Source: Arcobacter sp.
GTDB taxonomy: Bacteria; Campylobacterota; Campylobacteria; Campylobacterales; Arcobacteraceae
DNA length: 57,252 nucleotides
NCBI GenBank assembly: GCA_965662175.1
Contig: CBFIGT010000005.1
Coordinates: forward strand, 1-57,252
Reading direction: 5' to 3'
The notes beneath the pieces were generated by a model, which worked only from the letters and a program-made list of their open reading frames with translations, did no database searches and had not been told where the DNA came from. Positions 1 through 23,239 of the stretch are shown here, one piece after another; the first letter of the stretch is position 1; each line of letters begins with the position of its first letter. The translations under genes were made by a program, and so were the position numbers.

Positions 1-953
1 ACTCTCTCTAAAACTCTTGCCATAAATGGCTCATAAATTGACTCTTGGATTAATGCTCTTGATGGACAAGTACAAACCTCACCTGAGTTAAATGCAAATA
101 AAACTAAACCTTCAATTGCTTTATCAAAGAACTCATCATCAGCGTCCATAATTGATTCCATGAAGATATTTGGAGATTTTCCACCAAGCTCTAAAGTAGA
201 TGGGATAATATTTTCAGTTGCATATTGCATAATTAACTGACCAGTTGTAGTTTCACCTGTAAATCCAACTTTTTTAACATCTGGATGAGTAGATAAATGT
301 TTACCAATTTTTCCACCTGCACCATTAATAATATTAACAATACCTTTTGGAAGAACATCTTGAATAATTTCCATTAGAATTAAAATAGCCATTGGAGTTG
401 CACTAGCTGGTTTTAAAACAACACAATTTCCAGCAGCAAGTGCAGGAGCTATTTTCCATGCAGCCATTAATAATGGGAAATTCCATGGAATAATTTGAGC
501 AACAACACCTAATGGCTCATAAACCTCTTGAGAAACTGTATTTTCATCTAAATCAGCAACTGTACCAGTTTCAGCACGAATTACTGAAGCAAAATATCTA
601 AAGTGGTCAACAACTAAAGGAATATCAGCATTAAGAGTCTCTCTTACAGCTTTTCCATTATCTAAAGTTTCAGCAACTGCTAATCTTTCTAAATTAGCTT
701 CAATTGCATCTGCAACTTTATTTAACATTGTAGATCTTTCAACTATTGAAGTGTGTTTAAATGATTCAAAAGCTGTCATTGCAGCAGCAACAGCTGCATC
801 AACATCAGCTTCATTTGATCTTGGAATTCTTGTTAAAACAGTTCCATCAACAGGAGAGATATTATCAAAGTATTCACCACTATTTGGAGCAACCCACTCT
901 CCACCTATAAAGTTCTCAAATTGAGATTTGTATGTTGGTTTTGCGTATGCCAT
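1..953 (-). CDS. NAD-dependent aldehyde dehydrogenase, AldB/ExaC/AcoD type (3' end runs off window)
   Basis: Not in ORF track. Manual translation from ATG at 953: MAYAKPTYKSQFENFIGGEW...IIPWNFPLLMAAWK...GFTGETTTG...TLELGGKSP...FNSGEVCTCPSR (catalytic Glu and Cys motifs). AAGGA RBS upstream. Confidence 0.93.
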   Translation of the reverse strand, partial: MAYAKPTYKSQFENFIGGEWVAPNSGEYFDNISPVDGTVLTRIPRSNEADVDAAVAAAMTAFESFKHTSIVERSTMLNKVADAIEANLERLAVAETLDNGKAVRETLNADIPLVVDHFRYFASVIRAETGTVADLDENTVSQEVYEPLGVVAQIIPWNFPLLMAAWKIAPALAAGNCVVLKPASATPMAILILMEIIQDVLPKGIVNIINGAGGKIGKHLSTHPDVKKVGFTGETTTGQLIMQYATENIIPSTLELGGKSPNIFMESIMDADDEFFDKAIEGLVLFAFNSGEVCTCPSRALIQESIYEPFMARVLER

Positions 954-1028
954 TTTATTTCCTTTTATATGTAAAATTTTCTTTTAAAACCTGAAAAATT
1001 TTGATAGTCAAATTTTTTCTGTACTGAA

Positions 1029-1082
1029 ATCTTACACAAGAATTATAGCCTGAATATAGCTCAAATATAGCATGAGTATAGC
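1029..1082 (-). promoter_or_regulatory. Four GCTATA direct repeats (11-bp period) plus -10 TAAGAT upstream of the aldehyde dehydrogenase
   Basis: TATAGC on + at 1044, 1055, 1066 and 1077; -10-like TAAGAT at 1034-1029, 9 nt from the last repeat. Confidence 0.8.
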
Positions 1083-1197
1083 GATAGGTAAAAAGCTCTA
1101 CAAGGCCCATTATATAGGATTAGTAGCATTTACGTAGCATTTAAAATTTATGTTTTTTTTGGTCAAAAAGATTAATATTTTATGCTACAATAATTTC

Positions 1198-3084
1198 ATG
1201 AAAACATTTAATTTTACATATCAAAACAATAGTTTCAAAAATATAATTGACTACTCATTGTTTAAAAATGAAGAGAATATATTAATACAAATATTTAGTG
1301 GACAAGATCATAGTACTTTAGAGTACATTATCTCTTTGCTTAGTAAAAATCTACCCCAAGCTATTATAATTGGTACTACAACTGATGGTGAAATTAAAGA
1401 TAAAAAAGTATCTACTTTAAAAACAGTGGTCTCAATATCTGTTTTTGAAAGCACTTTTATAAAAGCTTCAATAAAAAAAGGTCTTAACTCATTTCAAAAT
1501 GGTTATGATATTGCCCAAGAATTAATTACCTCAAATACCAAACTACTTATAACTTTTACAGATGGAACTTCAACAAATGGAGAAGAGTTCTTAAAAGGTA
1601 TAACAGCTTTTGATAACTCAATTATGGTATGTGGAGGAATGGCTGGAGATAATGGAGTTTTTAAACAAACATATATCTCATTGGGCTCTAAAATAATTGG
1701 CTGTGGAGCTGTTGCTGTTTCTCTTAACTCTGATATTTTACAAGTTAGTAATGATTATAAATATGATTGGTCACCTATTGGAATTGAGCATACTATTGAT
1801 AAGGTAATTGGAAATAGAATTTATGAAATATCAGGTATGAAAGCAATTGAATTTTATGAAAAATATTTAGGAGATAGTGATTCTCATACAGAGTTTCCCC
1901 TAATAGTTCAAAGAAATGGCATGTCAGTTGCCCGTGCTGTTTTAACACGTTATTCTGATGGAAGTTTAGGTTGTGGAGGAAATTTATACAAAGGGGATAA
2001 GGTTAAACTTGGATTTGCAAATGCTGAAATGATTATCAAAAATCCAGTGAAATATTTAAAAAATATTAACAACTATCCAGCTGAAACATTTTTTATTTAT
2101 TCATGTATGGCAAGACGAAGATATATGCAAAATCTTATCAAAGTAGAGATAGAGCCTTTTGCACAAATAGCACCAACAGCTGGTTTTTTTACCTATGCGG
2201 AGTTTTTTCACACAAATAAAAGAAATGAACTTATGAACCAAACTATAACCTTAGTTGGTCTAACAGAAAATCCCCACTCCTCTAAAAAAGTTATTGAAGA
2301 GAGTAGTAATATTGTAAATCACAATGAAAGTTCATATGCAAAAACTATTCAAGCCCTTACAAGTTTAATTCAACAAAGTGCAAAAGATCAAAATGAGCAA
2401 TCAAAAGTATTAGAAGAGCAGATTAAATATTCACAAAATTTACTAAAAAATCAAAAACTATTCCTAAGACACGCTGTTCATGAAACAAATACCCCTCTTT
2501 CAGTTATTATGAGCAATATTGATTTACATGAAATGGAACATGAAAAAAGCGAATATATCTCTAATATAGAGGTTGCTATGAAAAATATCTTCTCTATTTA
2601 TGATGATTTAAGCTATTTGGTTAAAAAAGATCAAGTTGAGTATAAAATTTACTCCATAGATTTAATTGATTTTGTAAGAAATAGAGTCTATTTTTTCAAA
2701 AATGTAGCTAATCAAGTCTCTTCAAAATTTAGTTTTCAAACAAATAATGATGAGATGAGTATAAAATTTAGTGAAACAAAACTTCAAAGAATAGTTGATA
2801 ATACATTAACAAATGCAATAAAATATACTTATAAGGGAAAACCCATCAATGTAAAACTTGAAAAAATTAATAAAACTCTTAAGTTTTCTGTTTCAAGTAA
2901 CTCAAAAAAAATCCAACACCCTGAAAAAATATTTGAAGAGTATTATAGGGAAGAGAAATCAAAAGATGGTTTTGGTCTTGGATTAAACCTAGTAAAAAGA
3001 ATTTGTGATGAAGAGGATGTTCTAATTGAACTTGTTTCAGACTCAAAAAACACATGTTTTACTTATACTTTTAAAGGATGCTGA
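1198..3084 (+). CDS. Soluble FIST-domain sensor histidine kinase
   Basis: FIST-N/FIST-C motifs (IIGTTTDGEI, GGMAGD, YSCMARR, GFFTYAE), H-box HETNTPL, N-box NAIKY, G-box GFGLGL; no transmembrane segment. Start moved from 1150 to ATG 1198, which lies 7 nt after TGcTACAAT. Confidence 0.88.
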   Translation: MKTFNFTYQNNSFKNIIDYSLFKNEENILIQIFSGQDHSTLEYIISLLSKNLPQAIIIGTTTDGEIKDKKVSTLKTVVSISVFESTFIKASIKKGLNSFQNGYDIAQELITSNTKLLITFTDGTSTNGEEFLKGITAFDNSIMVCGGMAGDNGVFKQTYISLGSKIIGCGAVAVSLNSDILQVSNDYKYDWSPIGIEHTIDKVIGNRIYEISGMKAIEFYEKYLGDSDSHTEFPLIVQRNGMSVARAVLTRYSDGSLGCGGNLYKGDKVKLGFANAEMIIKNPVKYLKNINNYPAETFFIYSCMARRRYMQNLIKVEIEPFAQIAPTAGFFTYAEFFHTNKRNELMNQTITLVGLTENPHSSKKVIEESSNIVNHNESSYAKTIQALTSLIQQSAKDQNEQSKVLEEQIKYSQNLLKNQKLFLRHAVHETNTPLSVIMSNIDLHEMEHEKSEYISNIEVAMKNIFSIYDDLSYLVKKDQVEYKIYSIDLIDFVRNRVYFFKNVANQVSSKFSFQTNNDEMSIKFSETKLQRIVDNTLTNAIKYTYKGKPINVKLEKINKTLKFSVSSNSKKIQHPEKIFEEYYREEKSKDGFGLGLNLVKRICDEEDVLIELVSDSKNTCFTYTFKGC

Positions 3085-3743
3085 TGAAAATATTATTATT
3101 AGAAGATGATATTATGTTAAACAAAGCTATTAAACAATACTTAGAATCAACAGGTCATGCTGTTATTTCAGCAATGGATGGAAATTGCTGTTTAGAGATT
3201 TTAAAAGAAGAGAGATTTGATTTACTTGTTTTTGATATAAATGTTCCTGATGTGGATGGTTTAACTATTTTGGAGGATTTGCATAGCCAAAAAAGAATGG
3301 TACCCACTATTTTTATCTCAGCACTTATTGATATTGAAGATATTACACGTGCATTTGATATAGGTTGTCATGATTATTTAAAAAAACCTTTCCATTTAAA
3401 AGAGTTAACACTTAGAATAAACAAGATTTTAAAAACAAGACAAGTACCACAAGAGCATAAAAGATTATCAAAATCATATAGTTATGATGCAAAAAATATG
3501 ATTCTACTTTTTAATAATGAACCTCAAATTTTACCAAAAAGACAAATACAAATTATTGATTTATTAGCTGCAAATAGAAGCTTAGTATGCAATTATGATA
3601 TGTTTAGAGATTATGTTTGGAATGATGATTATATAGATAATGCAACTATTCGAGCTGAAGTGAATAGAGTAAAAAAAGTCTTAAAAGAGGATTTCATCTC
3701 AAATATTAGAGGAATAGGTTATATGGTTGAAAGACCTAACTAA
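3084..3743 (+). CDS. OmpR-family two-component response regulator
   Basis: Receiver motifs LLEDD, FDINVP, KKPF; winged-helix C-terminus ending IRGIGY; start overlaps the kinase stop (TGATG). Confidence 0.92.
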   Translation: MKILLLEDDIMLNKAIKQYLESTGHAVISAMDGNCCLEILKEERFDLLVFDINVPDVDGLTILEDLHSQKRMVPTIFISALIDIEDITRAFDIGCHDYLKKPFHLKELTLRINKILKTRQVPQEHKRLSKSYSYDAKNMILLFNNEPQILPKRQIQIIDLLAANRSLVCNYDMFRDYVWNDDYIDNATIRAEVNRVKKVLKEDFISNIRGIGYMVERPN

Positions 3744-3868: not shown

Positions 3869-5320
3869 ATGCCAAAAAAAATTTCAAAAGTTCTAGTTGC
3901 AAATCGAGGTGAAATAGCTCTAAGAATAATTAGAGCTTGCAAAGAGTTAGACATTAAAAGTGTTGCTATTTTCTCTGAAGTTGATGTTGATGGGGTATGG
4001 GTTAGAAAAGCTGATGAGTGCTATCCACTTTTAGGTGACCCAATTCAAGCTTATTTAAATTTTGACAAAATTATTGCTTTAGCAAAAAAAGCCTCTTGTG
4101 ATGCAATTCATCCAGGTTATGGCTTTTTATCTGAAAATGCTGAGTTTGCCAAAGCTTGTGAAAAAGCAGGTATTATTTTTATAGGTCCAAAAGCTGAGCA
4201 TATTGCACTTTTTGGTGATAAAATGGCCTCAAAAGTAGCTATGAAAAAGATTGGTGTTCCAGTTTTAGAGGGGACGGATACTCCTATTTTAGATGTAAAA
4301 GAGGGTGAAAGAATCTCAAAAGAGATTGGTTTTCCAATTATTATCAAAGCTGCCTTTGGTGGAGGTGGTAGAGGTATGAGAATAGTAAAAGAGGAAAAAA
4401 ACTTTAAAGAGATGTTTGAAGCAGCAACTTCTGAAGCTAAAAAATTCTTTGGAAAAGGTGACGCTTTTATTGAAAAATATGTAGAAAACCCAAGACATAT
4501 TGAGATTCAAGTTATTGCTGATAAGTATGGAAATGTTTTACACTTAGGGGAGAGAGATTGCTCTATTCAAAGAAGACATCAAAAAGTAATTGAAATAGCT
4601 CCAAGTCCAAGACTTAATGAAAAAGTTAGACGGGAGTTATATAGGGTTTCTACAAAGGCTATGTTTAAATTAGGTTATGAAAGCGTTGGTACTATTGAGT
4701 TTTTAGTTGATAGTAGTGATAATTTTTATTTTATTGAGATGAATACAAGAGTTCAAGTTGAACATCCCGTAACAGAGATTACCACAGGTATTGATATTAT
4801 TCAAAGAATGATTGAGATAGCTGAGGGTGATAAACTACAATTTTTACAAGAAGAGATAAAATTTAGAGGTTATGCAATTGAGTTTAGAATAAATGCTGAA
4901 GACCCAAAAAAGAAATTTATGCCATCAAGTGGTACTGTAAATAAATATTTAACACCAGGAGGTCCTGGAGTTAGACTTGATACAGCTGTTTATACAGGAT
5001 ATAAAGTTCCTGCAAACTATGATTCTATGATTGGAAAACTTATTGTTTGGGCTCTTGATTGGGATGGCGCTGTTAGAAAAGCTAGACGAGCTTTAGATGA
5101 GTTTTATATAGAGGGACTTCCTACAAATATCCCTTTACATAGGGAAATTGTAAGGGATTTAGATTTTATTGAGGGTAAACTAGATACTAGTTATTTGGAT
5201 AAAAAACTTGAAAAATTTAATCTTGATGCCATTGATCATATTGAAGAAGAAGAGAAAAAGATGAAAAATATTGCTTTAGTGATAGAGCAAATTAAAAAAA
5301 ATAAATTAAACGTAAGATAA
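3869..5320 (+). CDS. Biotin carboxylase subunit (pyruvate carboxylase subunit A / AccC family)
   Basis: ANRGEIA, HPGYGFLSEN, GGGGRGMR, RDCSIQRRHQK, EMNTRVQVEH motifs; 483 aa with C-terminal extension as in PycA-type subunits. Confidence 0.9.
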   Translation: MPKKISKVLVANRGEIALRIIRACKELDIKSVAIFSEVDVDGVWVRKADECYPLLGDPIQAYLNFDKIIALAKKASCDAIHPGYGFLSENAEFAKACEKAGIIFIGPKAEHIALFGDKMASKVAMKKIGVPVLEGTDTPILDVKEGERISKEIGFPIIIKAAFGGGGRGMRIVKEEKNFKEMFEAATSEAKKFFGKGDAFIEKYVENPRHIEIQVIADKYGNVLHLGERDCSIQRRHQKVIEIAPSPRLNEKVRRELYRVSTKAMFKLGYESVGTIEFLVDSSDNFYFIEMNTRVQVEHPVTEITTGIDIIQRMIEIAEGDKLQFLQEEIKFRGYAIEFRINAEDPKKKFMPSSGTVNKYLTPGGPGVRLDTAVYTGYKVPANYDSMIGKLIVWALDWDGAVRKARRALDEFYIEGLPTNIPLHREIVRDLDFIEGKLDTSYLDKKLEKFNLDAIDHIEEEEKKMKNIALVIEQIKKNKLNVR

Positions 5321-5342: not shown

Positions 5343-6446
5343 CTATTTACAATAGTTTAAAGAGTTTTGTCTATTTCTATAAATAGGCTCTTTTGAAAAA
5401 GAGCTCAAAGCTCTTTCTACTTTTTTTGTAACTACACTATGAAAAGATGATTTATCACAAACAGGGTCAGCCTCATTCATATCGCCTGTTAGGGCATAAG
5501 CTTGACATCTACATCCACCAAAATCAGCCTCTTTTTCTGGACAAGTTCGGCAAGGCTCTTTCATCCACTTATCACCCCTAAAAAAGTTAAAAGCTTCACT
5601 ATCATTCCAAATCTCACGTACTGAAAAATCTTTTACATTTGGAAAGTTTAGTGGTAGAGTATTTGCTGTATTGCAAGGAAGTGCTACACCATCAGGATTT
5701 ATAGTTAAAAATGTTGTCCCCCAGCCATTCATACAAGCTTTTGGTCTTGTTGCAAAATAATCAGGCACTACAAAAAACACCTTCATATCATCTCTTTTTT
5801 CCCTATAATAATCAACTTCCTCTTTTGCTTTTATTAACTGCTCTTGCGTAGGAAGTAAGGCATCAATATTTTCTAAAGCCCAACCATAATATTGTATATT
5901 TGCTATCTCTAAATAGTTGGCATCCAAAGAGTTTGCAAACTCAATTATATCCCCTACTTGATGGATATTTTGTCTTGTGATACAAGAGTTAATTATTAGT
6001 TGTAAGCCATTCTCTTTACAAGCTTTTGCAAAGGCGATTTTATCTCTTTGAGCATTTTTATTATTTGTAATTAGTGCTGTTGTAATTGCATCATGTGATT
6101 GAATTCCAAGTTGTACAGTTTTTAATCCTGCCTCTTTTAGTTTTGGAATTATTGATAAATCACAAGCAACACCTGAAGTTATAAGATTTGTATAAAACTT
6201 CAAATCAGCTGCTTTTTTTACTATTTCTACAATATCTTTATTTAAAAGTGGCTCCCCACCTGAAAAACCAAGTTGAACAGCTCCCATGGCACGAGCTTCT
6301 TCCATAACCCTAAACCAATCCTCTTTTGTCATACTATCTTTTGTATTTGCAAAATCAAGTTGATTATAACAATATGAACACTCTAAAGGACACTTATGAG
6401 TTAACTCTAAAAGCATCCATAAAGGTGGTTTGATTTTACTCTCCAT
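5343..6446 (-). CDS. pqqE: PQQ biosynthesis radical SAM/SPASM enzyme PqqE
   Basis: PPLWMLLELTHKCPLECSYC, QYYGWA, RPKACMNGWG, DFGGCRCQA; operon context. Confidence 0.96.
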   Translation of the reverse strand: MESKIKPPLWMLLELTHKCPLECSYCYNQLDFANTKDSMTKEDWFRVMEEARAMGAVQLGFSGGEPLLNKDIVEIVKKAADLKFYTNLITSGVACDLSIIPKLKEAGLKTVQLGIQSHDAITTALITNNKNAQRDKIAFAKACKENGLQLIINSCITRQNIHQVGDIIEFANSLDANYLEIANIQYYGWALENIDALLPTQEQLIKAKEEVDYYREKRDDMKVFFVVPDYFATRPKACMNGWGTTFLTINPDGVALPCNTANTLPLNFPNVKDFSVREIWNDSEAFNFFRGDKWMKEPCRTCPEKEADFGGCRCQAYALTGDMNEADPVCDKSSFHSVVTKKVERALSSFSKEPIYRNRQNSLNYCK

Positions 6447-6705
6447 AAACTACCCACTTTCTATTTAAAGCCTCAATTAAAAATGCCTCAACATCTTTTT
6501 TTAAATCAGCTACTTGAAACTTTTCTTCAAGTATTTTTGCAATATCAAGTGTAGAGTTTTTACCATCACATAAATTCATAATTTCACCAGCACTTTGATT
6601 TAACTGTACCATTCCCTCAGGATATAAAAGTACAAAACACTCCTGTGCTTCTTCGTATTGCAGTTGAAAATGATTATTCACTACAAGTGATTTTTCTAGT
6701 TGCAT
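6436..6705 (-). CDS. pqqD: PQQ biosynthesis peptide chaperone PqqD
   Basis: 89 aa, [24 protein letters not shown]; lies between pqqC and pqqE. Confidence 0.93.
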
Positions 6706-7447
6706 TACAATCCTTTATATTAAAGTATGGTGGTCTTTTAAGCTCATAAGCCAAATATAAAGCATCACACATAGTCCATAAAATATCAAGTTTAAACTGT
6801 AATATTTCACAAGCTTTATTTTGTAATTCGCATGTATTAAACTCTTCTAAAGTTAAGGCTAAACCATGTTGAACATCTCTTCTTGCTTCACTTAATCTTT
6901 TTTGAAAATATCTTAAGCCATTTGCTTCTATCCAAGGATAGTTTTTTGGCCAAGTATCAAGTCTTTGTTGATGAATTTGAGGTGCAAACATTTCAGTAAG
7001 TGATGACATAGCAGCCTCTTTCCAAGGTCTTTGTTTTGCAAAATTTATATAAGCATCTACTGCAAATTTAACAGCTGGTAAAACATATTTATGAGATATT
7101 AAATCCTCTTTTTTAAGTCCTACTGCAACACCAAGTTCTAACCAAGCTTCAATTCCACCACCTACACTATCATGGTCAATTATTCTATCTATCCATTTTC
7201 TTCTATCTTCAAGGGGTGGATTATTTGACATAATAGCTGCATCTTTTATGGGAATAGCTGTTTGATAATAAAATCTATTTGCAACCCAACCTTGAATCTC
7301 CTCTTTAGAACAAGACCCCTCATACATTCTTATATGAAAAGGATGATGAATATGATACATTTCACCCATAGCTCTTAGTTTGGCTTCAAACTCCTCTTTT
7401 GATAATAAGTTATCCATTCTTTTAGTCATACTATTTTCCTCTTTCAT
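6674..7447 (-). CDS. pqqC: PQQ synthase PqqC
   Basis: [44 protein letters not shown]; true start could be a downstream Met. Confidence 0.96.
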
Positions 7448-7448: not shown

Positions 7449-8366
7449 TTAAATTTCTATACTCATACCATCATAAGATATCTCAATCCCATGACTTATA
7501 AGCTCTTTATATTCATCATTCTCTTCATCCAAAATTGGATTTGTATTATTTATATGTATTAATATTTTTCGTGGTTTTTCTAAAGTATCTAAAACTTTTA
7601 TCAAACCATCTTCTCCATTTAAAGGAATATGTCCCATCTCAGTTCCAAGTTTTTTTGAAAAGTTTCCTTTTATCATCTCATCATTTGTCCAAAGAGTTCC
7701 TTCCAATAAAAGGATATCTGCTTTTTTCATCTCTTCTAAAATATGATCTTCTAAAACTCCAAGTCCTGGAAGATAAAACAGTCTTTTACCTGTATTTTTA
7801 TTTACAACTGTAACTCCTATATTATCACCCTTTCTTGGTTTATCTCTATAGGCTGAATATGGAGGTGCATTTGAGATTAGTGAATGGGCATAAAACTCAT
7901 ATGAAGGCATAACAGGTATTTCAAATTTTGTAGTAGAATTTGCAACAATTTCATGCCAAAAAGTTCCTCCACCATCCCAGTGTTTTAACATTTTCATTAA
8001 AGGAAATGATGTATTTAACTCTTCATTTACCTCTTTTGTACAATAAATTTGGTGAGGACATCCCTCTCTTAACATAAGTAAACCCGTTGTGTGGTCAATT
8101 TGAGCATCATTAAAAATGATAGCTTTTATTTTTGTTTCTCTTTTTTTCTTTGGATGTAAAAAGGGTGAATTATGAATTTGTTCTAAAATATCTGGTGAGG
8201 TGTTAAATAAAACCCAATTTTCACCATCTTCACTTATAGTAATAGAACTTTGAGTTCTTCTTTTAATACTTTTTTTACCCTCTCTATAGCCTTTGCAATT
8301 ATCACAATTACAGTTAAACTGAGGAAGTCCACCACCTGCACTTGAACCTAAAACTTCTATTTTCAT
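7449..8366 (-). CDS. pqqB: PQQ biosynthesis protein PqqB
   Basis: [42 protein letters not shown]. Confidence 0.96.
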
Positions 8367-8460: not shown

Positions 8461-8535
8461 TTATTCGTGACAAATATACATTGTAACTTCGAATCCAAAT
8501 CTATTATCTACGAACATTGGTGTTTCCCATTTCAT
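8461..8535 (-). CDS. pqqA: PQQ precursor peptide PqqA (24 aa)
   Basis: Not in ORF track. MKWETPMFVDNRFGFEVTMYICHE* with the E-x3-Y (EVTMY) core; strong AAGGAGG RBS; directly upstream of pqqB. Confidence 0.97.
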   Translation of the reverse strand: MKWETPMFVDNRFGFEVTMYICHE

Positions 8536-10399: not shown

Positions 10400-10431
10400 A
10401 GTATACTTGAGTTGTATAGCTTGAGTTTAGC
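10400..10431 (-). promoter_or_regulatory. Regulon box plus -10 for the pedH-pqqABCDE operon
   Basis: Minus strand GCTAAA-ctcaa-GCTATA-caactcaag-TATACT. Confidence 0.8.
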
Positions 10432-11935: not shown

Positions 11936-11939
11936 ATTA

Positions 11940-13033: not shown

Positions 13034-13318
13034 ATGAAATATGAATGGGATGAAGAAAAAAATAGACTAAATCTACAAAAGCACGGCATATCATTTGAAG
13101 AAGCAAAAGAGGTTTTTAATGATGCTCTTCACATATCAAAACTAGATAAAAGATTTAGTTATTTTGAAGAAAGATGGATAAGCATTGGTTCAACTTCAAA
13201 ATATAAAGTTTTAGTTGTTGCCAATTTATTCTTTACAGATGAAGGTGAAGAAATTATTAGAATAATAAGTGCTAGAAGAGCTAACAAAAAAGAAAGGCAA
13301 AGTTATGAAAAGTGTTGA
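13034..13318 (+). CDS. brnT: BrnT-family ribonuclease toxin
   Basis: YEWDEEKNRLNLQKHGISFEEA...EERW..IG...IRIISARRA. Confidence 0.92.
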   Translation: MKYEWDEEKNRLNLQKHGISFEEAKEVFNDALHISKLDKRFSYFEERWISIGSTSKYKVLVVANLFFTDEGEEIIRIISARRANKKERQSYEKC

Positions 13319-13553
13319 AGAAAGAGCAAAATTTGATAATTTTGAATTGGAAGATAATTATGATTTTACAGATGGTATTAGAGGAAGATTTTATAAACCT
13401 AAAAAAGTACCTACCTCTATGAGATTGGATGATGATATTTTACTTTTTTTAAAAAAAGAAGCAAGTGAAAAAAAAATACCATATCAAACACTAATTAATA
13501 ATTTACTTAGAGAGCATATGCAAGTACATGGAATAAAAAAACAAATCAACTAA
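13305..13553 (+). CDS. brnA: BrnA-family antitoxin (ribbon-helix-helix)
   Basis: YDFTDGIRGRFY...SMRLDDDILLFLK...YQTLINNLLR; overlaps the toxin 3' end; start set to ATG 13305. Confidence 0.87.
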   Translation: MKSVEERAKFDNFELEDNYDFTDGIRGRFYKPKKVPTSMRLDDDILLFLKKEASEKKIPYQTLINNLLREHMQVHGIKKQIN

Positions 13554-14767: not shown

Positions 14768-15219
14768 TAAAACCTATATTTGCTTTTTTACTTTTTTGCT
14801 TAACTCTTAATGCTTATGAAATAGAAGATAAAACAGACTATTTTAAAGTAAAAATAAAAGAGAGAAGTTTTGAAAACTTATATTTAAATTTAAAAGATGA
14901 AATAGCATACAACTCTTATATACTTGTTTATGAATTAAATCTTGGAAAATCTACAGCAAGTGTAGCTAAGGCTTTAGATAAAAAAGCAGTAGTGAAAAAT
15001 GGAATAAACTTATTACTTTGTAAAAATAGCTTCACTTTAAAAATGCACGAAGAGAATATTGATAATATGACCTTTTGCCCTATGATTATCTCTATATATC
15101 AAGATGAAACCTCAAAATATATCTCTTTTAAAAAATATCACCCTTTAAAAAAGGGTGATAAAATAGCTAGCGAAATAAATAAAAGATTAAAAGAGCTAAT
15201 TTTAAATAGCTTAAAATAG
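14764..15219 (+). CDS. Exported DUF302-like protein
   Basis: Signal peptide; LLLCK...FCPMIISIY pattern and size resemble DUF302. Confidence 0.6.
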   Translation: MIKPIFAFLLFCLTLNAYEIEDKTDYFKVKIKERSFENLYLNLKDEIAYNSYILVYELNLGKSTASVAKALDKKAVVKNGINLLLCKNSFTLKMHEENIDNMTFCPMIISIYQDETSKYISFKKYHPLKKGDKIASEINKRLKELILNSLK

Positions 15220-15220: not shown

Positions 15221-17281
15221 TTATTTTATTGGAAGTTCTATATAAAATATAGCTCCTGTTTCACTATTTTTTGCAGAGAGTTTTCCACCTAAACTTTCTG
15301 TTACTATTCTATAACTCATATTAAGTCCTAAACCTGTTCCCTCACTATCTTTTTTTGTAGTAAAATATGCTTCAAAGATTTTGGGTAAAATCTCTTCAGG
15401 AATTCCCCCTGCATTATCCTCAAAACTAATAATATAAGAATTTTCTTTTTTGATTAAATTGACACTTATAGTAGGATTTTCTATTTTATTTTCAATAAAA
15501 GCATCTTTTGCATTATTTATAATATTTATCATTACCTCTTCAAGTTCTCCTGAAACTAAATGTAAGCTAGCTGTTTTATCAGCTATATTATTTATAAGTT
15601 TAATATTATTATTGTATAAAGTTGTATTTATAAGATTTATTACTCTATTTAAACACTCTAAAATATTTACATTTTTTAACTCTTTTTTATCTTTTAAAAA
15701 GTTTCTAAAAGTCTCAATTGTATCTGACAAATAGTTAGCACTTTTTGTGATTTGTTCCATACTATCTTTAATTTCACTTTGCTGTAAAATATTCATCTCT
15801 TGTTTTAAAGAGATAGTAGTAGAAATAGTAGTAATTACAGATAATGGCTGTTTCCATTGATGAGCTATATTTCCAATCATCTCTCCCATAGCTGCCAATT
15901 TTGATTGATTTAACATTCTTTGTTTTTGTTCTTCAAACTCTTTTTTACTAGTAATATCATTTCTTTTAGAGATATATCCTGTTATTTTTTTATTTTTATT
16001 CCAAATAGGTTCAATAATGGCATCAACCCAATAATATGTACCATCTTTTTTTAGATTTTTAACTTCACCTTTCCAAGTTTTTCCACTTTGAATAGTTTCC
16101 CACATCTCTTTAAAAACACTACTATTTGTATCAGGGTGTCTTATTATACTATGTGGTTTTCCGATTAATTCCTCTTTTGTATAACCTGAAATATCACAAA
16201 ATGCTTTACTTACATAAGTTATATTTCCCTTTAAATCAGATTTTGAGAAAATTACATTATCATCATAAGTATTAAATAGTAAATTCAACTTTTTTTGTTG
16301 TTTAATTATTTTTGCTGTTTTTAGGGAAACCTCTTTATTTAAATATTTTGCATAGTTTCTATAAAAAAGATATAAAATTAATAAAATAAAAATAATTAGA
16401 AAAATAATCACTTTTATTAAATAATCAGCTTTGAAATCATACACAATAGATTTATCAAGCTTTTTTTCATCATAAAAAAATATAACAAATCCCATTTCTC
16501 CACCATGAATATCTTTTATTTGAGTTGTAAAAACTAAATAGTTCTCAAATAAAATTGGCTCATCCAAATACATTAATTTTTTTAATCCAAAAATTTCAGC
16601 TTTTTTCATAAGCTCTTTAGAAGCATTTAAATTAGCCACATAATTTTTACCAATAAAAAGTCCTGTAAATGGCTTAATAAATCTATTGGTATACTCTTCA
16701 TCTAAAACCATCAAAGGTTTTACTCCTACCTCTTCTAAAGCTGTTGCTATGGAGTTAAATTTAGAAATAACCTCAATTATTCCTATAAATTTATTTTCAT
16801 GAAAAAGTGGAATCATAGTCTTAAAAGTCATATCAAATCGACCGGTACTAATTCCTCTAATAGGTCTTGGATTTTTAATCATATCTACAATATCTATTCT
16901 TGCTTTAGCTGCATTATCCCCTACTTTATTAGTCCAACTTCTATAAAAGCTATACCCATCTTTATCAATAATTTGAATCCATAAATTCTTATTTTCATCA
17001 AAATTTTGAATATCTTTTATGATTTGTGTATAGTCGATTAATCTGTTATCATTTTTTAATAATGCTCTAGTTAATTTTTCATCTTTACTCAAAAGATATG
17101 TTAATGCAAAAGTTTTACCAAATTTTTTTTCAACTTCATTTTCAAAAAATGTAATAAGTTCATTTGATTTTGATTTATATAATTTGTTAGTTAAATTATC
17201 AATTTGCTTAGGATAATATAATCTATGAAAAATAAAAAGAGTAACAAAAACTACAATAATAAAATAAAATAATTTCTTCAT
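15221..17281 (-). CDS. Membrane sensor histidine kinase (periplasmic Cache-like domain, PAS)
   Basis: Two TM segments, PAS (SKSDLKGNITYVS...HSIIRHPD...WKGEVKN), H-box IAHQWKQPL, NNAKDA, GTGLGL. Confidence 0.9.
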   Translation of the reverse strand: MKKLFYFIIVVFVTLFIFHRLYYPKQIDNLTNKLYKSKSNELITFFENEVEKKFGKTFALTYLLSKDEKLTRALLKNDNRLIDYTQIIKDIQNFDENKNLWIQIIDKDGYSFYRSWTNKVGDNAAKARIDIVDMIKNPRPIRGISTGRFDMTFKTMIPLFHENKFIGIIEVISKFNSIATALEEVGVKPLMVLDEEYTNRFIKPFTGLFIGKNYVANLNASKELMKKAEIFGLKKLMYLDEPILFENYLVFTTQIKDIHGGEMGFVIFFYDEKKLDKSIVYDFKADYLIKVIIFLIIFILLILYLFYRNYAKYLNKEVSLKTAKIIKQQKKLNLLFNTYDDNVIFSKSDLKGNITYVSKAFCDISGYTKEELIGKPHSIIRHPDTNSSVFKEMWETIQSGKTWKGEVKNLKKDGTYYWVDAIIEPIWNKNKKITGYISKRNDITSKKEFEEQKQRMLNQSKLAAMGEMIGNIAHQWKQPLSVITTISTTISLKQEMNILQQSEIKDSMEQITKSANYLSDTIETFRNFLKDKKELKNVNILECLNRVINLINTTLYNNNIKLINNIADKTASLHLVSGELEEVMINIINNAKDAFIENKIENPTISVNLIKKENSYIISFEDNAGGIPEEILPKIFEAYFTTKKDSEGTGLGLNMSYRIVTESLGGKLSAKNSETGAIFYIELPIK

Positions 17282-17367: not shown

Positions 17368-17766
17368 TTAATATTTTCCAAACTCCTTATAACTATTATT
17401 TGAAAAAATAATATAAACAGTTTTTATCTCTTTATTATTCTCATAAGCAGGTAGTGATAAACCTATTGAGTCTTTTGGAATATTTTTAAAATAATCTTTT
17501 ATAGCTTTTAAAGGTACATTACCCTCAAATACATAATCATCTATTATGGATGTGTTACAAGATTGTAGCTCTTTTGGTACTCCTATTTCTCTTTTTAGAT
17601 TTTTTACACTCATTAAAGATACTATCTTTACATCACCAATCTCATTTTCCATATCATCAAGCCACTCTTTTGGACACTCACTTGTTACTGGTTTAAAGAT
17701 TTGCATTTTTTGATTTTGGGCAAAAAGAGCAAAAGTAAAAACTAAAATCAACATCAATTTTTTCAT
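17368..17766 (-). CDS. Exported DUF411/CopG-like protein with divergent metal ligands
   Basis: Signal peptide; KREIGVPKELQSCNTSIIDDYVFEGNVP...IGLSLP resembles the DUF411 pattern GVP..L.SCHT...Y..EGHVP...GLAVP. Confidence 0.65.
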   Translation of the reverse strand: MKKLMLILVFTFALFAQNQKMQIFKPVTSECPKEWLDDMENEIGDVKIVSLMSVKNLKREIGVPKELQSCNTSIIDDYVFEGNVPLKAIKDYFKNIPKDSIGLSLPAYENNKEIKTVYIIFSNNSYKEFGKY

Positions 17767-18461
17767 ACTATTCCTTCTAATATTTTGGGAAAAGTTTCCA
17801 AAATATGGTTTTTTATTTCATCTATTTTTTTAAGATTTGATTCTTGATTATTGTTATTTTCAAAATCTAATATCTTTTTTGTGGGATTAGCACTTAAAAA
17901 AATCATTCGATTTGATAAATGAACAGCTTCACTTAAATCATGAGTTACTAAAATAACTGTTGGTTTAAACTTTTTATAAAATGCTAAAAACTCTTTTTTT
18001 AAAGCCATTGAGGTAGGGAAATCTAAAGAAATAAAAGGCTCATCAAGTAGTATGATTTTGGGTCTATTTACAAAAGCCCGAAGTAAAGCCACTCTTCTTT
18101 TCATGCCACCTGAAAGTCTGTTTGGATAAAGATTTAAAATATTTTCTAAACCTATCATAGAGATTAAATCATCAATTTCACTCACATTTTTTGTTTTTGA
18201 AACCAATAAAAGATTCTCTTTTACTGTCAACCAAGGTAATAATCTATCATCTTGAAACATAAAAGAGATATTTGAAAAATCACCTTTTAAACTCCCTTTA
18301 TAATCCTCTTCAAGATTTGCAATAATATTTAATAATGTAGTTTTTCCACATCCTGAGGGTCCAATTATAGAAAGAAATTCTCCCTCATTTATAGCTATAT
18401 TTATATTTTTCAATACTACTTTTTTTGAAAAAAGTTTTTCATCAACACAGATATTTAACAT
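17763..18461 (-). CDS. NitT/TauT-family ABC ATP-binding protein
   Basis: GPSGCGKT, FQDDRLLPW, LSGGMKRR, LDEPF, VTHD. Confidence 0.9.
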   Translation of the reverse strand: MLNICVDEKLFSKKVVLKNINIAINEGEFLSIIGPSGCGKTTLLNIIANLEEDYKGSLKGDFSNISFMFQDDRLLPWLTVKENLLLVSKTKNVSEIDDLISMIGLENILNLYPNRLSGGMKRRVALLRAFVNRPKIILLDEPFISLDFPTSMALKKEFLAFYKKFKPTVILVTHDLSEAVHLSNRMIFLSANPTKKILDFENNNNQESNLKKIDEIKNHILETFPKILEGIV

Positions 18462-18462: not shown

Positions 18463-19197
18463 TTATTTCCAAGCTTTTAATCTATTATCAATAGGTTTTA
18501 AAATCTTATGTTCAATTAGTAAAATAACAAATATAAAAGCAAAAGAGTAAGCTAAAATAGAACTAATATCAAAAAACTGATAATACATAGATATTTGAAA
18601 ACCAATACCATCACTTCGCCCTAATAACTCAACAACTAAAACAATTTTCCAAATTAAAGATAATGATAATCTTGTTGTTGCCATCAAATATGGATAGAGT
18701 TGGGGAAGATAGATATTAAATATTATCTCTTTTTTTGATAACTTATAAACCTTTGCAAAATCCATATATTTTTTTTCAAAAGCTCGTGTTCCTTCTCTTA
18801 TATTTGTAACTATTATTGGAACTTTATTTATAACTACGGCTAAAATCGCAGCAAAATCACTAAGTCCAAACCAAATATAGCAAACTATTATTGTAACAAG
18901 GGCTGGAATATTTAAAAATAAAATTAACAAAAAATCAAGCATCTCATCTATTTTTTGATAAAAGCCCATAGCTATTCCTATAATTACACCTATTATCATA
19001 GTTATAAAAAAAGCTACAAAGACTCTATATAAAGTTATAAATAGATGGGAAAACAACTCTTTATTTGCTATTTGTTGACTAAGATTTTTTAATACATCAA
19101 TTACACTTGGAAATAGTTCTGAGTTAACAGCTATGGAAGAGGCTTGCCAAACTATAACAACTAGCAAAATTGATAAAATTCCCCTTTGATTTTTCAT
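18463..19197 (-). CDS. NitT/TauT-family ABC permease
   Basis: Multiple TM segments; WKIVLVVELLGRSDGIG. Confidence 0.88.
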   Translation of the reverse strand: MKNQRGILSILLVVIVWQASSIAVNSELFPSVIDVLKNLSQQIANKELFSHLFITLYRVFVAFFITMIIGVIIGIAMGFYQKIDEMLDFLLILFLNIPALVTIIVCYIWFGLSDFAAILAVVINKVPIIVTNIREGTRAFEKKYMDFAKVYKLSKKEIIFNIYLPQLYPYLMATTRLSLSLIWKIVLVVELLGRSDGIGFQISMYYQFFDISSILAYSFAFIFVILLIEHKILKPIDNRLKAWK

Positions 19198-20153
19198 TTA
19201 TTTTCCAAATAAAAAATATCTCTACTAAAAGAGATATTTGAGCTAATATAAGAGGCCCCTGCTTCATTTGATAAAATTTTATAAATCTTTTCTAATTCAT
19301 CTATATCTTTTTCATCAAATTTATTTATAGTTCCTTTTTTATACTGCTGTTTTAGTGAATTAAAAATCTCTTCATTTTTTACTTTCATTAAAGCTCTGAT
19401 TTTATTCCACTCCTTATCACTACTATTCAAAAACTCCTTACTTTGAGTATTTGCTTTTAAAAAGCTATTTAATAACTCACTCTTTTTAGTTGCAAACTCC
19501 TTAGAAAATACCCAACCTACAAAACTAATATCCTCTTTTACTCCAAGCTCTTTTAAAATATCTTCAATATTAATAAGTGCTTTAAAATCTTTTTTTGGAA
19601 GTTTTGCATTAAAATGCCAGAAATTTATACTTGCATTTAGTGAATTATCAAGCATCTTTTTATATAAGATTGGAGGTGAAGCAAAAACCTTTTTCACATC
19701 ATTTTGAAGCTCTTTTCCATAGGTTTTTTTATAATAAGCCCTAAACAAAAGCCAAGTTTTATCATAAACTCCACCTGCAATTCCTAGCTCTTTATCTTTT
19801 AACTCTTCTAAACTATTGATATTGGAATTTTTATTTATCATAAGTGTTCCAAGTGCTTTTGAATAGGGATAAAACATAAACTCTTTTTTATTTGCTTTTT
19901 GTTTATTAACCCAAATCCAATCATTTACTATAATATCAACTTCATTTGCTTGTAGTGAAATTAATTGGGCATTTTTTGAAGCTAATTTTACAAGCTCTAA
20001 ATCAAAGCCGTTTTTTTTATCTAAGCCATTTTGTTTTAAAATTTCTAATCCCCAATTAACAGTTCCATAGGCTAAAACACCAACTCTTAATTTTTCATTG
20101 GCATTTAAATTTATCAAAATAAATAAAAAACAAAACACTAGTTTATAAAACAT
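19194..20153 (-). CDS. NitT/TauT-family ABC substrate-binding protein
   Basis: Signal peptide; GVLAYGTVNW, DIIVNDWIWV, PYSKALG, IAGGVYDKTW, NFWHF. Confidence 0.85.
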   Translation of the reverse strand: MFYKLVFCFLFILINLNANEKLRVGVLAYGTVNWGLEILKQNGLDKKNGFDLELVKLASKNAQLISLQANEVDIIVNDWIWVNKQKANKKEFMFYPYSKALGTLMINKNSNINSLEELKDKELGIAGGVYDKTWLLFRAYYKKTYGKELQNDVKKVFASPPILYKKMLDNSLNASINFWHFNAKLPKKDFKALINIEDILKELGVKEDISFVGWVFSKEFATKKSELLNSFLKANTQSKEFLNSSDKEWNKIRALMKVKNEEIFNSLKQQYKKGTINKFDEKDIDELEKIYKILSNEAGASYISSNISFSRDIFYLENK

Positions 20154-20215: not shown

Positions 20216-20236
20216 GTTAAAAATATTTATTTTGGC

Positions 20237-20268
20237 GCTATAATCAGGCTATAAAATATCTGTATAGT
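20237..20268 (+). promoter_or_regulatory. Regulon box plus -10 for the cytochrome c550 operon
   Basis: GCTATA-atcag-GCTATA-aaatatctg-TATAGT. Confidence 0.78.
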
Positions 20269-20301
20269 TTCATCAACAAAAAAAATAATAAAGGAATTTG
20301 T

Positions 20302-20712
20302 ATGAACAAAATACAAAAAATAGCTTTAGCAACACTTTTTTCAACTGTGTTTGCATTTGGTCATGGAAGTGTTACACCTCAAGCAATTGATACAAAAGAT
20401 TTAAAACCTTTAGGTGAAGAGTGGTTAGAAGAAAATCCTTATAAAGGTGATGAAAAAGCTATTGCAATTGGAAAATATGCATATAGTGAAAATTGTGCTA
20501 GATGTCATGGATTAGATGCAATATCAGGTGGAATCGCTCCTGATTTAAGATACTTAGAAGATGGAATTGATGGCGATGAGTGGTATATGGAAAGAATTAG
20601 AGGTGGAGCTGTTAGAAATGGTAATGTTTATATGCCACCATTTGAGGGTGTTTTAAATCAAGAAGCTATGTGGGCTATTAGAGCTTATTTAATCACTTTA
20701 CCAAAAGATTAA
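20302..20712 (+). CDS. pedF: Cytochrome c550, electron acceptor of the PQQ-ADH (PedF/ExaB)
   Basis: Signal peptide, HGSVTPQAIDT, NCARCHGL..ISGGIAPDLR, G.VYMPPF. Confidence 0.9.
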   Translation: MNKIQKIALATLFSTVFAFGHGSVTPQAIDTKDLKPLGEEWLEENPYKGDEKAIAIGKYAYSENCARCHGLDAISGGIAPDLRYLEDGIDGDEWYMERIRGGAVRNGNVYMPPFEGVLNQEAMWAIRAYLITLPKD

Positions 20713-20714
20713 TT

Positions 20715-21581
20715 ATGAACATTCTTAAATCTACTATCTTAATCTTAGTTATTACTCTATCTTCATATGCAAGAAGTATTGAAGATATTAAAAGTAGTGG
20801 TGAAATAATCATTGCTGTTTATGAAGATTTTCCTCCATACTCATTTATTGAAAATGGTGTTGTAAAAGGTATAGATATAGATTTAGGAAAAAAAGTTGCA
20901 AAATCTTTAAATGTAGAACCAATATGGTACTTTACAGGCTCAGATGAAACACTTGCAGATGATTTAAGAAATGTAATTTGGAAAGGAAATCTAATACATA
21001 AAACAAAAGCTGATATTATGTTTAGAGTTCCTTATGATTACGATTATATGAGAATGACAGATATTTCAACAGGTGAGTTAGAAACAGAAATGGTTTCAAT
21101 AAAAGGACCATATCAAAGTGAAAGTTGGGTTATTGCTACAAATAAAAATAAAATACCTGAAATAAACACTTTGGCTGTTTTTGCTTATCATGATATTGGT
21201 GTTGAAATAGATACTCTACCTGACCTTCATCTAAGTGGTTTTGCTAGAGGTTTAATTAGAGATAAAATTAAACACTATACTAACTTTAGAAAAGCAGTTG
21301 CTGATTTTAAAGCTGGAAGAATAGATGCCCTTGCAGGTTTAAAATCACAATTAGAGTATCTTCTTGAGTACCAAAAAAACAAAGATAAGTATTACATCAG
21401 TGATGGAATACCACAAATGAAATCAAAGTGGGATTTAGCAAGCGCAACTTCAAGTAGCTATAGAGCCCTTAGTTATCATATTGATGGAGTTATTCAAGAA
21501 GCCTATGAAAATAAAGAGATTGAAAAAATCTTCAATAAATATGGTGTTGAATATATGCCACCAATAGCAAGGACCCAATAA
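20715..21581 (+). CDS. Periplasmic binding protein family 3, quinoprotein-associated (PedG/MxaJ-like)
   Basis: VYEDFPPYSF, GIDIDLG, ETLADDLRN.IWKG, ADIMFRVPYD; follows c550. Confidence 0.8.
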   Translation: MNILKSTILILVITLSSYARSIEDIKSSGEIIIAVYEDFPPYSFIENGVVKGIDIDLGKKVAKSLNVEPIWYFTGSDETLADDLRNVIWKGNLIHKTKADIMFRVPYDYDYMRMTDISTGELETEMVSIKGPYQSESWVIATNKNKIPEINTLAVFAYHDIGVEIDTLPDLHLSGFARGLIRDKIKHYTNFRKAVADFKAGRIDALAGLKSQLEYLLEYQKNKDKYYISDGIPQMKSKWDLASATSSSYRALSYHIDGVIQEAYENKEIEKIFNKYGVEYMPPIARTQ

Positions 21582-21599
21582 AAATTATAAGGATTTATC

Positions 21600-22340
21600 A
21601 TGAAAGATATATTTTTCGCCCTAGTACTAATCATCTCTTCGCAAAGTTTATTTGCGAAGAATCCCATAGGTTCCCCAACTTTTGATGATATTATAAACAG
21701 CCTTTTAGGAAGTGAAAAATATATCTTTGATGATAAAAATATAGTTTTAAAAGTTCCAAATTTTGCTGATAATCCAGTTCAAGTTCCAATTTTCATGGAT
21801 GCTAAAAAAATCAAAGATGCAAAAAGAGTTATCCTTTTTGCTGATTTAAATCCAATACCTGTTTTACTTGATATGAAACTAAATGGCTTACTTCCAATTA
21901 TCTCACTTAATATGAAAGTTGCCCAAGAAACACCGCTTCGGGCCTTAGTTCAAGATAATAAAAATCTTTGGCATATAGGAAGTGCAAATATAAAAAGTTT
22001 TGGTGGAGGTTGTGCTGTTTCAAGTGATGCTTCTAGCAATACAGATTTTGATAAATACCTAGGAAAAGTAAAAGGTAATATCTTTAAAAAAGATGATATT
22101 GTTAGAATAAAAACCTCAATTTTTCACCCAATGGAGACAGGTTTAGTTTTTGGAAATAGTGAATTTTATATCAATAAAATCTCTATTTTTGCACAAAATG
22201 AACAAATAGGTGAATTATCAACTTATTCAGCAATAAGTGAAAATCCAAGATTTATCTTTGAGACTACAAAAATAGCAAATAACTATAAAATAAAGTTTTT
22301 TGATATAGATGCAAATGAGTTTTCTCTGGATTTAAAATGA
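21600..22340 (+). CDS. Quinoprotein dehydrogenase-associated fused SoxYZ-like carrier
   Basis: Signal peptide; FADNPVQVP, FADLNPIP, GGGCA swinging-arm motif, SoxZ-like FHPMETGL and ISENP. Confidence 0.82.
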   Translation: MKDIFFALVLIISSQSLFAKNPIGSPTFDDIINSLLGSEKYIFDDKNIVLKVPNFADNPVQVPIFMDAKKIKDAKRVILFADLNPIPVLLDMKLNGLLPIISLNMKVAQETPLRALVQDNKNLWHIGSANIKSFGGGCAVSSDASSNTDFDKYLGKVKGNIFKKDDIVRIKTSIFHPMETGLVFGNSEFYINKISIFAQNEQIGELSTYSAISENPRFIFETTKIANNYKIKFFDIDANEFSLDLK

Positions 22341-23239
22341 AAAAATTAACGATTATCCTACTCTTTTTTAACTTTTTATTTGCAAATGAGTTTGATTATC
22401 AACTCAAAGCCATAAATATAGCGAAAAATAGCTACTATTTTTATGGTAAAGAGGAGTATTTCTCAGCTCAAAATGGAGGAGATATAGCAAATAGTGCTTT
22501 TATTATCACAAAAAAAAGCGTTATTTTAATAGATACAGGAAGCTCTTATCAATATGGAAATCAAATAAAAAAACAGATATCAAAAATCACAAACAATCCA
22601 ATAAAATATATAATCAACACCCACCATCACCCTGATCATTTTTTAGGAAATAATGCCTTTGAAAAAAGTGATATTTATGCTTCAAAATTCACCCAAGATG
22701 AGATAAGTAAAAATGGTGAACTTTATATAATGAATCTAAATAATTTAGTTCAAAAAGCTATGCAAGGAACAAAAATAAAAGCTCCAAATATGCACCTAAA
22801 AACAAAAGAGTTAAATATAGATGATTATATTTTAGAGATTTTATATTTTGATGGACATACCTCAAGTGATGTGGCTATTTATGATAAACAAACAAAAGTA
22901 CTCTATAGTTCTGATTTGATTTTTAATAAAAGAGCCTTAGCCACACCCCATGCAAACTTAGAAAAATGGATAAAATCACTTGAAGAGTTAAAAAAAATAG
23001 ATTTTAAAGTTTTAGTTCCAGGTCATGGGAAAATAGCAAAATCTAAAAAAGTAATAGATGAAAATATAGCTTATTTGAAATATCTTCATAATACATTTAA
23101 AAATAGTGCAAATAGTGGTTTGGATATTTTTGAAGTATTAGAGATAAAAGTTCCAAAAGAGTTCAAAGATTATTCTATGTTTGAAGAGGAGTTTGAAAGA
23201 AGTGTAATTAATCTTTATCCTAAATATGAAAAAAGATAA
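22337..23239 (+). CDS. Quinoprotein relay system zinc metallohydrolase (MBL fold, SoxH-like)
   Basis: Signal peptide; NGGDIANSAF, IDTG, THHHPDHFLGN, GHT, VPGHG. Confidence 0.85.
   Translation: MKKLTIILLFFNFLFANEFDYQLKAINIAKNSYYFYGKEEYFSAQNGGDIANSAFIITKKSVILIDTGSSYQYGNQIKKQISKITNNPIKYIINTHHHPDHFLGNNAFEKSDIYASKFTQDEISKNGELYIMNLNNLVQKAMQGTKIKAPNMHLKTKELNIDDYILEILYFDGHTSSDVAIYDKQTKVLYSSDLIFNKRALATPHANLEKWIKSLEELKKIDFKVLVPGHGKIAKSKKVIDENIAYLKYLHNTFKNSANSGLDIFEVLEIKVPKEFKDYSMFEEEFERSVINLYPKYEKR

Follow-up and report, generated by a model that had tools for sequence, protein, structure and literature searches.

A ped-type alcohol-oxidation gene cluster with a single PedH-type PQQ dehydrogenase in an Arcobacter genome

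Introduction

The best-described counterpart of the gene cluster considered here is the ped cluster of Pseudomonas putida KT2440. The gene table of a review (PMC12997753) names PedF, PedG, PP_2677, PP_2678, PedA1A2BC, PedI and pqq as its members. Its two pyrroloquinoline quinone (PQQ) alcohol dehydrogenases, the calcium-type PedE and the lanthanide-type PedH (Protein Data Bank, PDB, 6ZCW/6ZCV), stand under a PedS2/PedR2 switch with PedD, and loss of PedA1A2BC raises the La3+ need for PedH-dependent growth about 100-fold (PMC6839425). Two further systems are relevant, namely ExaA/ExaB/ExaC of Pseudomonas aeruginosa (1FLG), in which a calcium-type enzyme of the same superfamily is joined by a cytochrome c550 acceptor and an ExaC-type aldehyde dehydrogenase, and the PQQ-binding protein PqqT of Methylorubrum extorquens AM1 (9B1U, 9B1V), whose gene is accompanied by those of a permease and an ATPase. 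Here we describe a ped-type cluster in the first 23,239 nucleotides of a contig from Arcobacter sp. (GenBank assembly GCA_965662175.1, contig CBFIGT010000005.1, positions 1 to 57,252; contig C5 of genome G000 in our coding). The whole 57,252-nucleotide stretch is called the window. The assembly comprises 2.60 Mb in 249 contigs and is 94% complete.

The cluster probably encodes a chromosomal ped-type system for periplasmic alcohol oxidation, with one PQQ alcohol dehydrogenase of the lanthanide-coordinating PedH type at its centre. It shares with P. putida the c550, SBP_bac_3, SoxYZ-like, metallo-beta-lactamase (MBL)-like, PedA1A2BC and ExaC-like families. It differs in that the genome lacks PedE, PedD, PedS2/PedR2 and any LuxR-type regulator, a FIST-kinase/OmpR pair being found instead; in that the dehydrogenase has a lipobox and a linker; and in that the cluster holds a PqqT-type importer and a ligand-less DUF411 protein, with pqqABCDE straight after the dehydrogenase gene. 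Open-access literature searches on Arcobacter and related taxa combined with lanthanide or PQQ alcohol dehydrogenase returned no description of such a system in the group or the phylum. "Methanol oxidation" genes are mentioned for one Arcobacteraceae clade, without detail (PMC11265409).

Results and discussion

Compared with solved structures, the dehydrogenase scored 900 bits to PedH of P. putida (6ZCW) and 653 bits to the calcium-type ExaA (1FLG). Its residues 333-337 read WDFDG, which places an aspartate two residues past the catalytic aspartate (D-x-D), as in PedH. The 11-residue stretch around WDFD matches 6ZCW exactly, whereas ExaA reads NDAWDFSGNNE at the aligned position, with a serine in place of the lanthanide aspartate. 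The motifs GGEFG and NPAPWN and a 14-residue stretch containing the vicinal cysteines (PCCD) are also the same as those of PedH in the alignment; the vicinal Cys-Cys and the other aligned residues are presumably metal or PQQ ligands of PedH-type enzymes. Identity is 68-71% to Pseudomonas PedH-type genes and ~49-54% to calcium-type sequences. Across an alignment of 140 distinct sequences, of which Arcobacteraceae genomes contributed 56 and other bacteria 84, the +2 position is Asp in 119/119 rows of the lanthanide-type clade and Ser in 21/21 rows of the calcium-type clade. These two clades are split, in a quick IQ-TREE phylogeny of the same 140 rows (LG+G4, midpoint root between the two enzyme types), by branches with a Shimodaira-Hasegawa-like approximate likelihood ratio (SH-aLRT) support of 100, and the window enzyme lies inside the 119-row PedH-type clade. 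Judged by its aligned residues, the window dehydrogenase is a PedH-type enzyme in which the predicted lanthanide-coordinating Asp is present.

Strict lanthanide dependence of alcohol oxidation is suggested by this diagnostic residue taken together with published mutant work, since XoxF1 D320A and ExaF D319S lose lanthanide-dependent function (10.1101/2020.02.25.964783). The enzyme might instead also work with calcium, in which case alcohol oxidation would not be strictly lanthanide dependent. XoxF1 made without La3+ does bind Ca2+, according to the same source, and our literature searches found no assay of any Arcobacteraceae enzyme of this type. However, the calcium-bound XoxF1 is described there as having little or no catalytic activity (10.1101/2020.02.25.964783), the active-site motifs of the window enzyme are identical to those of PedH, and the Arcobacteraceae genomes that use a calcium-type enzyme have a separate WDFS gene plus PedD for it. 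We consider a calcium-active enzyme unlikely and prefer strict lanthanide dependence.

The N-terminus of the dehydrogenase carries a lipoprotein-type signal (lipobox LISGC) and an Asn/Ser/Thr-rich linker, and the protein is probably lipid-anchored. A lipobox of this kind occurs in 26 of the 47 Arcobacteraceae lanthanide-type sequences, the others, which belong mostly to the clades coded g2 and g21, having ordinary signal peptides. The combination of lipobox and linker was not seen in any Pseudomonas PedH-type row; two other rows from outside the family (L011, L029) fit a loose lipobox pattern and were taken as chance matches. The lanthanide-type gene of one relative (L160, G167:C15:400300-402700) is broken into two reading frames around residues 344-350, a possible case of decay.

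A search of the whole assembly with Pfam PF01011 recovered this gene as the only PQQ alcohol dehydrogenase, with no calcium-type paralogue. A first-pass annotation, made from the letters of the window alone, had claimed that only a lanthanide-type gene was present, with no calcium-type backup, and had set a genome-wide search for other PQQ alcohol dehydrogenases as the test of that claim; no PedE-type paralogue turned up, in the window or elsewhere in the assembly. As the genome is without a calcium-type enzyme, PQQ-linked alcohol oxidation should require lanthanides. Other genes of alcohol dehydrogenase families are limited to a YqhD-like Fe-dependent member and a YhdH/AcuI reductase. Both were considered as a backup dependent on nicotinamide adenine dinucleotide (NAD) and rejected: the match to Zn-dependent alcohol dehydrogenases is the YhdH/AcuI acrylyl-CoA reductase, the YqhD-like protein falls below its cut-off, and neither is a clear ethanol dehydrogenase.

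By homology to the P. putida and Methylorubrum systems, we infer the following working for the cluster. The pqqABCDE genes would make PQQ, which a PqqT-type ATP-binding cassette (ABC) importer would recapture, while PedA1A2BC would supply lanthanide at low concentrations. The dehydrogenase, at its probable lipid anchor, would oxidise alcohols such as ethanol in the periplasm and pass the electrons to cytochrome c550, and these would then enter the respiratory chain (the genome has ccoN of a cbb3 oxidase). The aldehyde would be oxidised in the cytoplasm by the ExaC-like dehydrogenase, and the genes would be controlled by the FIST-kinase/OmpR pair, a role that LuxR-type regulators have in Pseudomonas. 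We favour the reading that alcohol donates electrons in the periplasm; ethanol may have this role without supporting growth. The assembly was found to contain a single TonB-dependent receptor, cut by the start of its contig (C102, L147 1-1515). It most resembles a copper receptor, though with a score far under the cut-off, and it adjoins genes for a histidine kinase and an EAL-domain regulator; it says nothing either way about a lanthanide (LutH-type) receptor.

The PQQ genes lie directly downstream of the dehydrogenase (Table 1). Between pqqA and pqqB there is a terminator-like hairpin (8447-8423) with a 10-bp stem and a T run, which fits the higher transcript level of pqqA known from pqq operons. 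No dedicated pqqF is found in the cluster, and two generic M16 peptidases are encoded elsewhere in the genome. The binding protein of the ABC importer aligns with PqqT over nearly its full length (residues 18-314 to chain residues 1-297 of 9B1U). Four of the six PQQ contacts of PqqT named in PMC11331073 are identical, Lys142 included, and the other two are exchanged (Asn143 to Thr, Ala42 to Val). Two ABC systems had been reported in the first-pass annotation and both are indeed present; the second, by its homology, is most likely a PQQ importer and not a second metal system. In contrast to the Methylorubrum system, its genes here share a cluster with those for PQQ synthesis, and in 34 genomes a DUF411 gene follows them. 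Outside the family, similar ABC trios adjoin PedH-type genes in five Azospirillum loci and one Comamonadaceae locus, and an Ensifer locus has the permease and ATPase only.

To place the cluster within its family, 184 Arcobacteraceae genomes were searched with TIGR03075 (match, E <= 1e-20). Matches were found in 58 genomes from 10 of 22 genera, 55 of them over the family cut-off. The diagnostic residue typed 56 of the 58: 47 are lanthanide-only, four have both types (G155, G156, G168, G170) and five are calcium-only (G048, G043, G090, G107, G017). The other two (G023, G141) hold dehydrogenase fragments without the motif and so were left untyped. Of the other genomes in the genus of the window, five are lanthanide-only, one is calcium-only (G048) and one is without the dehydrogenase. 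The lack of a calcium twin is the rule in Arcobacteraceae, not a peculiarity of this genome.

The accessory genes are distributed unevenly between the two enzyme types. pedA1 was found in 49/184 genomes and a PqqT-like binding protein in 51/184, and all carriers of either have a typed lanthanide-type dehydrogenase or are one of the two untyped genomes, with zero among the five calcium-only or the dehydrogenase-negative genomes. Four lanthanide-type genomes gave no pedA1 match, namely G021 (76% complete), G116 (61%), G142 (78%) and G166 (94%), and two gave no PqqT-like match, namely G064 (91%) and G142 (78%). By Pfam, a PedD-like pentapeptide-repeat protein occurs in exactly the nine genomes with a calcium-type enzyme, always beside the calcium-type gene. 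These nine WDFS genes with PedD are the Arcobacteraceae counterparts of ExaA; the window's genome lacks them, and no PedD homologue was found in it. In G155 and G156, whose clusters were viewed, the calcium-type gene lies between pedA2 and pedB, and in the other two genomes with both types it lies, by the search coordinates, ~3 kb and ~12 kb from the lanthanide-type gene on the same contig. The window's pedA2 and pedB overlap in a contiguous cluster, and therefore there is no room for a calcium-type gene between them.

Several points weigh against a lanthanide-dependent ped-type system. PedA1, PedB and the SoxYZ-like carrier are best hits with full-length coverage whose scores are slightly below the NCBIfam cut-offs. 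Metal dependence and substrates are predictions from the genes. Among the sequencing runs listed as containing the dehydrogenase gene, two are recorded as RNA, with shares of just 0.05-0.07. Malate synthase was not found in the genome, isocitrate lyase gave a short fragment-like match only, no canonical Acs scored over its cut-off, and C2 carbon assimilation is not established. As pedB and pedC are kept in three of the five calcium-only clusters (G090, G107, G017), these two genes are not strictly tied to the lanthanide-type enzyme; the SoxYZ-like and metallohydrolase genes are kept in all calcium-only clusters. The calcium-only call for G017 is itself unsafe, because its assembly is fragmented and still has pedB, pedC and the DUF411 gene of the kind found in the window's cluster. 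Moreover, the genomes are related and cannot be counted as independent, and the true number of events is smaller than the co-occurrence counts suggest.

A further such point is that absence of a calcium-type gene elsewhere in a genome assembled to 94% in 249 contigs is no proof. A calcium-type paralogue could lie hidden in the unassembled ~6%, and one genome of the same genus (G048) does have a calcium-type enzyme. However, in 9/9 genomes that carry it the calcium-type gene either lies within the corresponding cluster or takes its place, and the cluster of the window runs unbroken from the aldehyde dehydrogenase gene to pepA without one. Moreover, no PedD homologue was found in G000. The caveat of incompleteness is therefore weak and a hidden paralogue very unlikely, and we retain the reading of a single, lanthanide-type enzyme.

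With regard to origin, all 47 Arcobacteraceae lanthanide-type rows form one clade (SH-aLRT 100), nested in a 70-row clade (SH-aLRT 98) with Pseudomonadaceae and three Alteromonadales sequences, and the nine calcium-type rows form a single clade (SH-aLRT 99) beside Pseudomonas PedE-like genes. No donor is named because the outgroup sample consisted of the best 80 of 589 confirmed loci. Genus labels on the lanthanide-type rows change 12 times, where the minimum for nine genera is 8; descent has therefore been mostly vertical, with a few exchanges inside the family. The cluster has a guanine-plus-cytosine content (GC) of 0.290, compared with 0.279 for the remainder of the window and 0.278 for the whole genome. 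At third codon positions (GC3) the genes of the cluster range from 0.117 to 0.211, the mean for long open reading frames of the genome being 0.147 (sd 0.024); five cluster genes are slightly above the genome's 95th percentile, as is the flanking greA. All clusters viewed occupy one locus, from the aldehyde dehydrogenase to the MBL-like gene and then pepA. A comparison with an empty site gave no result, as the pepA neighbourhood of G049 (same genus, no dehydrogenase) has no flank genes in common with cluster-bearing genomes.

An old, ameliorated acquisition had been proposed in the first-pass annotation, to be checked by mapping the genes across the family and comparing the gene tree with taxonomy. 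The mostly genus-coherent single clade, the host-like composition and the conserved locus all support that proposal, and the cluster is now an ordinary chromosomal locus; the word "island", which that annotation used and which we keep for the DUF411 copy below, is not to be read as a mobile element. Recent transfer of a mobile island from Gammaproteobacteria is extremely improbable, for although the closest relatives outside the family are Alteromonadales and Pseudomonadaceae PedH-type genes (69-75% identity, among the best 80 of 589 loci) and a toxin-antitoxin pair lies within the cluster, GC and GC3 are host-like, the single clade of 47 family sequences largely follows genus boundaries, different genera share one chromosomal locus, none of the 25 proteins scanned in 1-23239 matched an integrase or transposase family, and among the clusters viewed the toxin-antitoxin pair occurs in this genome alone.

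The putative regulators are part of the conserved arrangement. A FIST kinase gene stands next to the aldehyde dehydrogenase gene in every Arcobacteraceae cluster viewed, whether lanthanide-type or calcium-type, and the OmpR-type regulator is 77-93% identical in the clusters of relatives. No GerE/LuxR domain was found in the genome. In tblastn searches of the genome without low-complexity filter, a query of Pseudomonas PedS2-like kinase gave no match and a PedR2-like query gave matches to receiver domains only. The P. putida arrangement of a PedE/PedH pair under the PedS2/PedR2 switch with PedD was not found in the genome, there being no calcium-type dehydrogenase, PedD, GerE domain or PedS2-like match. 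A promoter scan was uninformative, with 103 sites against 107 expected by chance.

Two small exported proteins were also considered. The 151-residue protein encoded after pedA1 appears DUF302-like by an Atlas feature score of 0.89 to DUF302 clusters, which is a lead only, and its gene is kept in both lanthanide-type and calcium-type clusters. The island DUF411 protein matches CopG (PDB 6WIS) weakly (E 1e-4 over the core), and both have a signal peptide and a similar length. The genome's other DUF411 protein (contig C178) has CECC, SCHT, EGH and GMPIGSPGM, whereas the island copy reads SECP, SCNT and EGN with the Met-rich loop deleted, so that the Cys/His/Met copper ligands present in CopG are lost. 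By its predicted ligands the island DUF411 is not of the copper-binding kind. This type of DUF411 occurs in 34/184 genomes, within one subclade of clusters. Possible decay is seen in two accessory genes of relatives: the island DUF411 of G045 (L139/L140) has two in-frame TAA stops, and the PedD gene of G168 (G168:C30:62166-62879) has one TAA stop.

The distribution of accessory genes might reflect separate helper sets for each metal form in Arcobacteraceae, with PedD serving the calcium-type enzyme, and PedA1/PedA2, PedG, the PqqT-type importer and the DUF411 of one subclade serving the lanthanide-type enzyme. On that proposal, PQQ uptake would be coupled mechanistically to lanthanide use, and DUF411, its copper ligands swapped for oxygen and amide side chains, would be a new protein of the periplasm for handling lanthanide or PQQ. 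We regard this as a rather doubtful extension of the data. Nevertheless, the family offers a natural comparison at one locus, between lanthanide-only, mixed and calcium-only clusters, which gives testable hints on PedD, PedG, PedA1/A2 and the PqqT-type importer.

Taken together, these data would extend lanthanide-type alcohol oxidation to Campylobacterota, where we found no report of it. Roughly one in three Arcobacteraceae species seems to possess it, in most cases without a calcium fallback. If this is confirmed, the availability of rare earths would influence how these bacteria, which abound in sewage, marine water and sediments, use alcohols.

Gene map and neighbouring features

Gene calls in 1-23239 were made from a listing of open reading frames together with Pfam and NCBIfam scans (25 proteins scanned) and are given in Table 1. 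The first-pass annotation had described a self-contained clustering of the alcohol dehydrogenase, pqqABCDE, c550, an aldehyde dehydrogenase, two ABC systems, periplasmic accessory proteins and regulators. All of these parts are present; "self-contained" is slightly too strong, as the aldehyde dehydrogenase gene is truncated at the contig end and its C-terminal part was found nowhere in a search of the whole assembly.

Table 1. Features of the cluster in the window. Bit scores are followed by the family cut-off where available.
Feature	Coordinates	Strand	Evidence
ExaC/PedI-like NAD-dependent aldehyde dehydrogenase, N-terminal 317 residues, gene cut by contig end	3-953	-	NF050026 ExaC, E 1e-154, profile positions 11-321 of 503
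FIST_N/FIST_C sensor fused to histidine kinase	1150-3084	+	Pfam
OmpR-type response regulator, partner of FIST kinase	3078-3743	+	Pfam
Second biotin carboxylase, pyruvate-carboxylase-subunit-A-like	3869-5320	+	NCBIfam
pqqE	5343-6446	-	TIGR02109, 472 bits, over cut-off
pqqD	6436-6705	-	TIGR03859, 96 bits, over cut-off
pqqC	6674-7447	-	TIGR02111, 331 bits, over cut-off
pqqB	7449-8366	-	TIGR02108, 372 bits, over cut-off
pqqA precursor peptide, 24 residues, E-x3-Y motif	8461-8535	-	Translation
PedH-type PQQ alcohol dehydrogenase, 592 residues	8572-10350	-	TIGR03075, 785.1 bits (480.05)
pedC, permease	10427-11209	-	TIGR03861, 337 bits (241)
pedB, ATPase	11213-11998	-	TIGR03864, 291.1 bits (302.25), just under
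pedA2, beta-propeller	11940-12896	-	TIGR03866, 499 bits (287)
BrnT/BrnA toxin-antitoxin pair	13034-13553	+	Pfam
pedA1, substrate-binding protein	13619-14767	+	TIGR03863, 411.2 bits (413.6), just under
151-residue exported protein, translationally coupled to pedA1	14764-15219	+	No Pfam or NCBIfam match
dCache_3-PAS histidine kinase	15221-17281	-	Pfam
DUF411 (CopG-fold) protein, 4-nucleotide overlap with ABC ATPase gene	17368-17766	-	Pfam
PqqT-type ABC importer, ATPase	17763-18461	-	
PqqT-type ABC importer, permease	18463-19197	-	
PqqT-type ABC importer, binding protein	19194-20153	-	PDB 9B1U match, E 1.6e-53
Cytochrome c550 PedF, electron acceptor	20302-20712	+	TIGR04494, 202.5 bits (122)
PedG-like SBP_bac_3 protein	20715-21581	+	Pfam
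SoxYZ-like carrier	21600-22340	+	TIGR04557, 138 bits (140)
Quinoprotein relay zinc metallohydrolase 1 (MBL-like)	22337-23239	+	TIGR04558, 372 bits (300)
greA, then pepA	23282 onward		

Three items within the span are not part of the shared core: the BrnT/BrnA pair, the PAS histidine kinase and the second biotin carboxylase. The BrnT/BrnA pair, between pedA2 and pedA1, is a recent insertion in this lineage, because it is absent from every relative's cluster viewed. The dCache_3-PAS histidine kinase lies between the 151-residue gene and DUF411 without an adjacent response regulator, no viewed relative has a kinase there, and it is an insertion specific to this genome. The second biotin carboxylase is also found in the clusters of G048, G155, L022 and L027, with a hemerythrin-PAS gene instead in G045; the other biotin carboxylase copy of the genome, on contig C2, is 50% identical to it. 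A role for the cluster copy in anaplerosis during growth on alcohols is speculation. Just beyond the cluster, at 25491-27575, lies a molybdopterin oxidoreductase gene that is kept at that place in G045 (86% identity).

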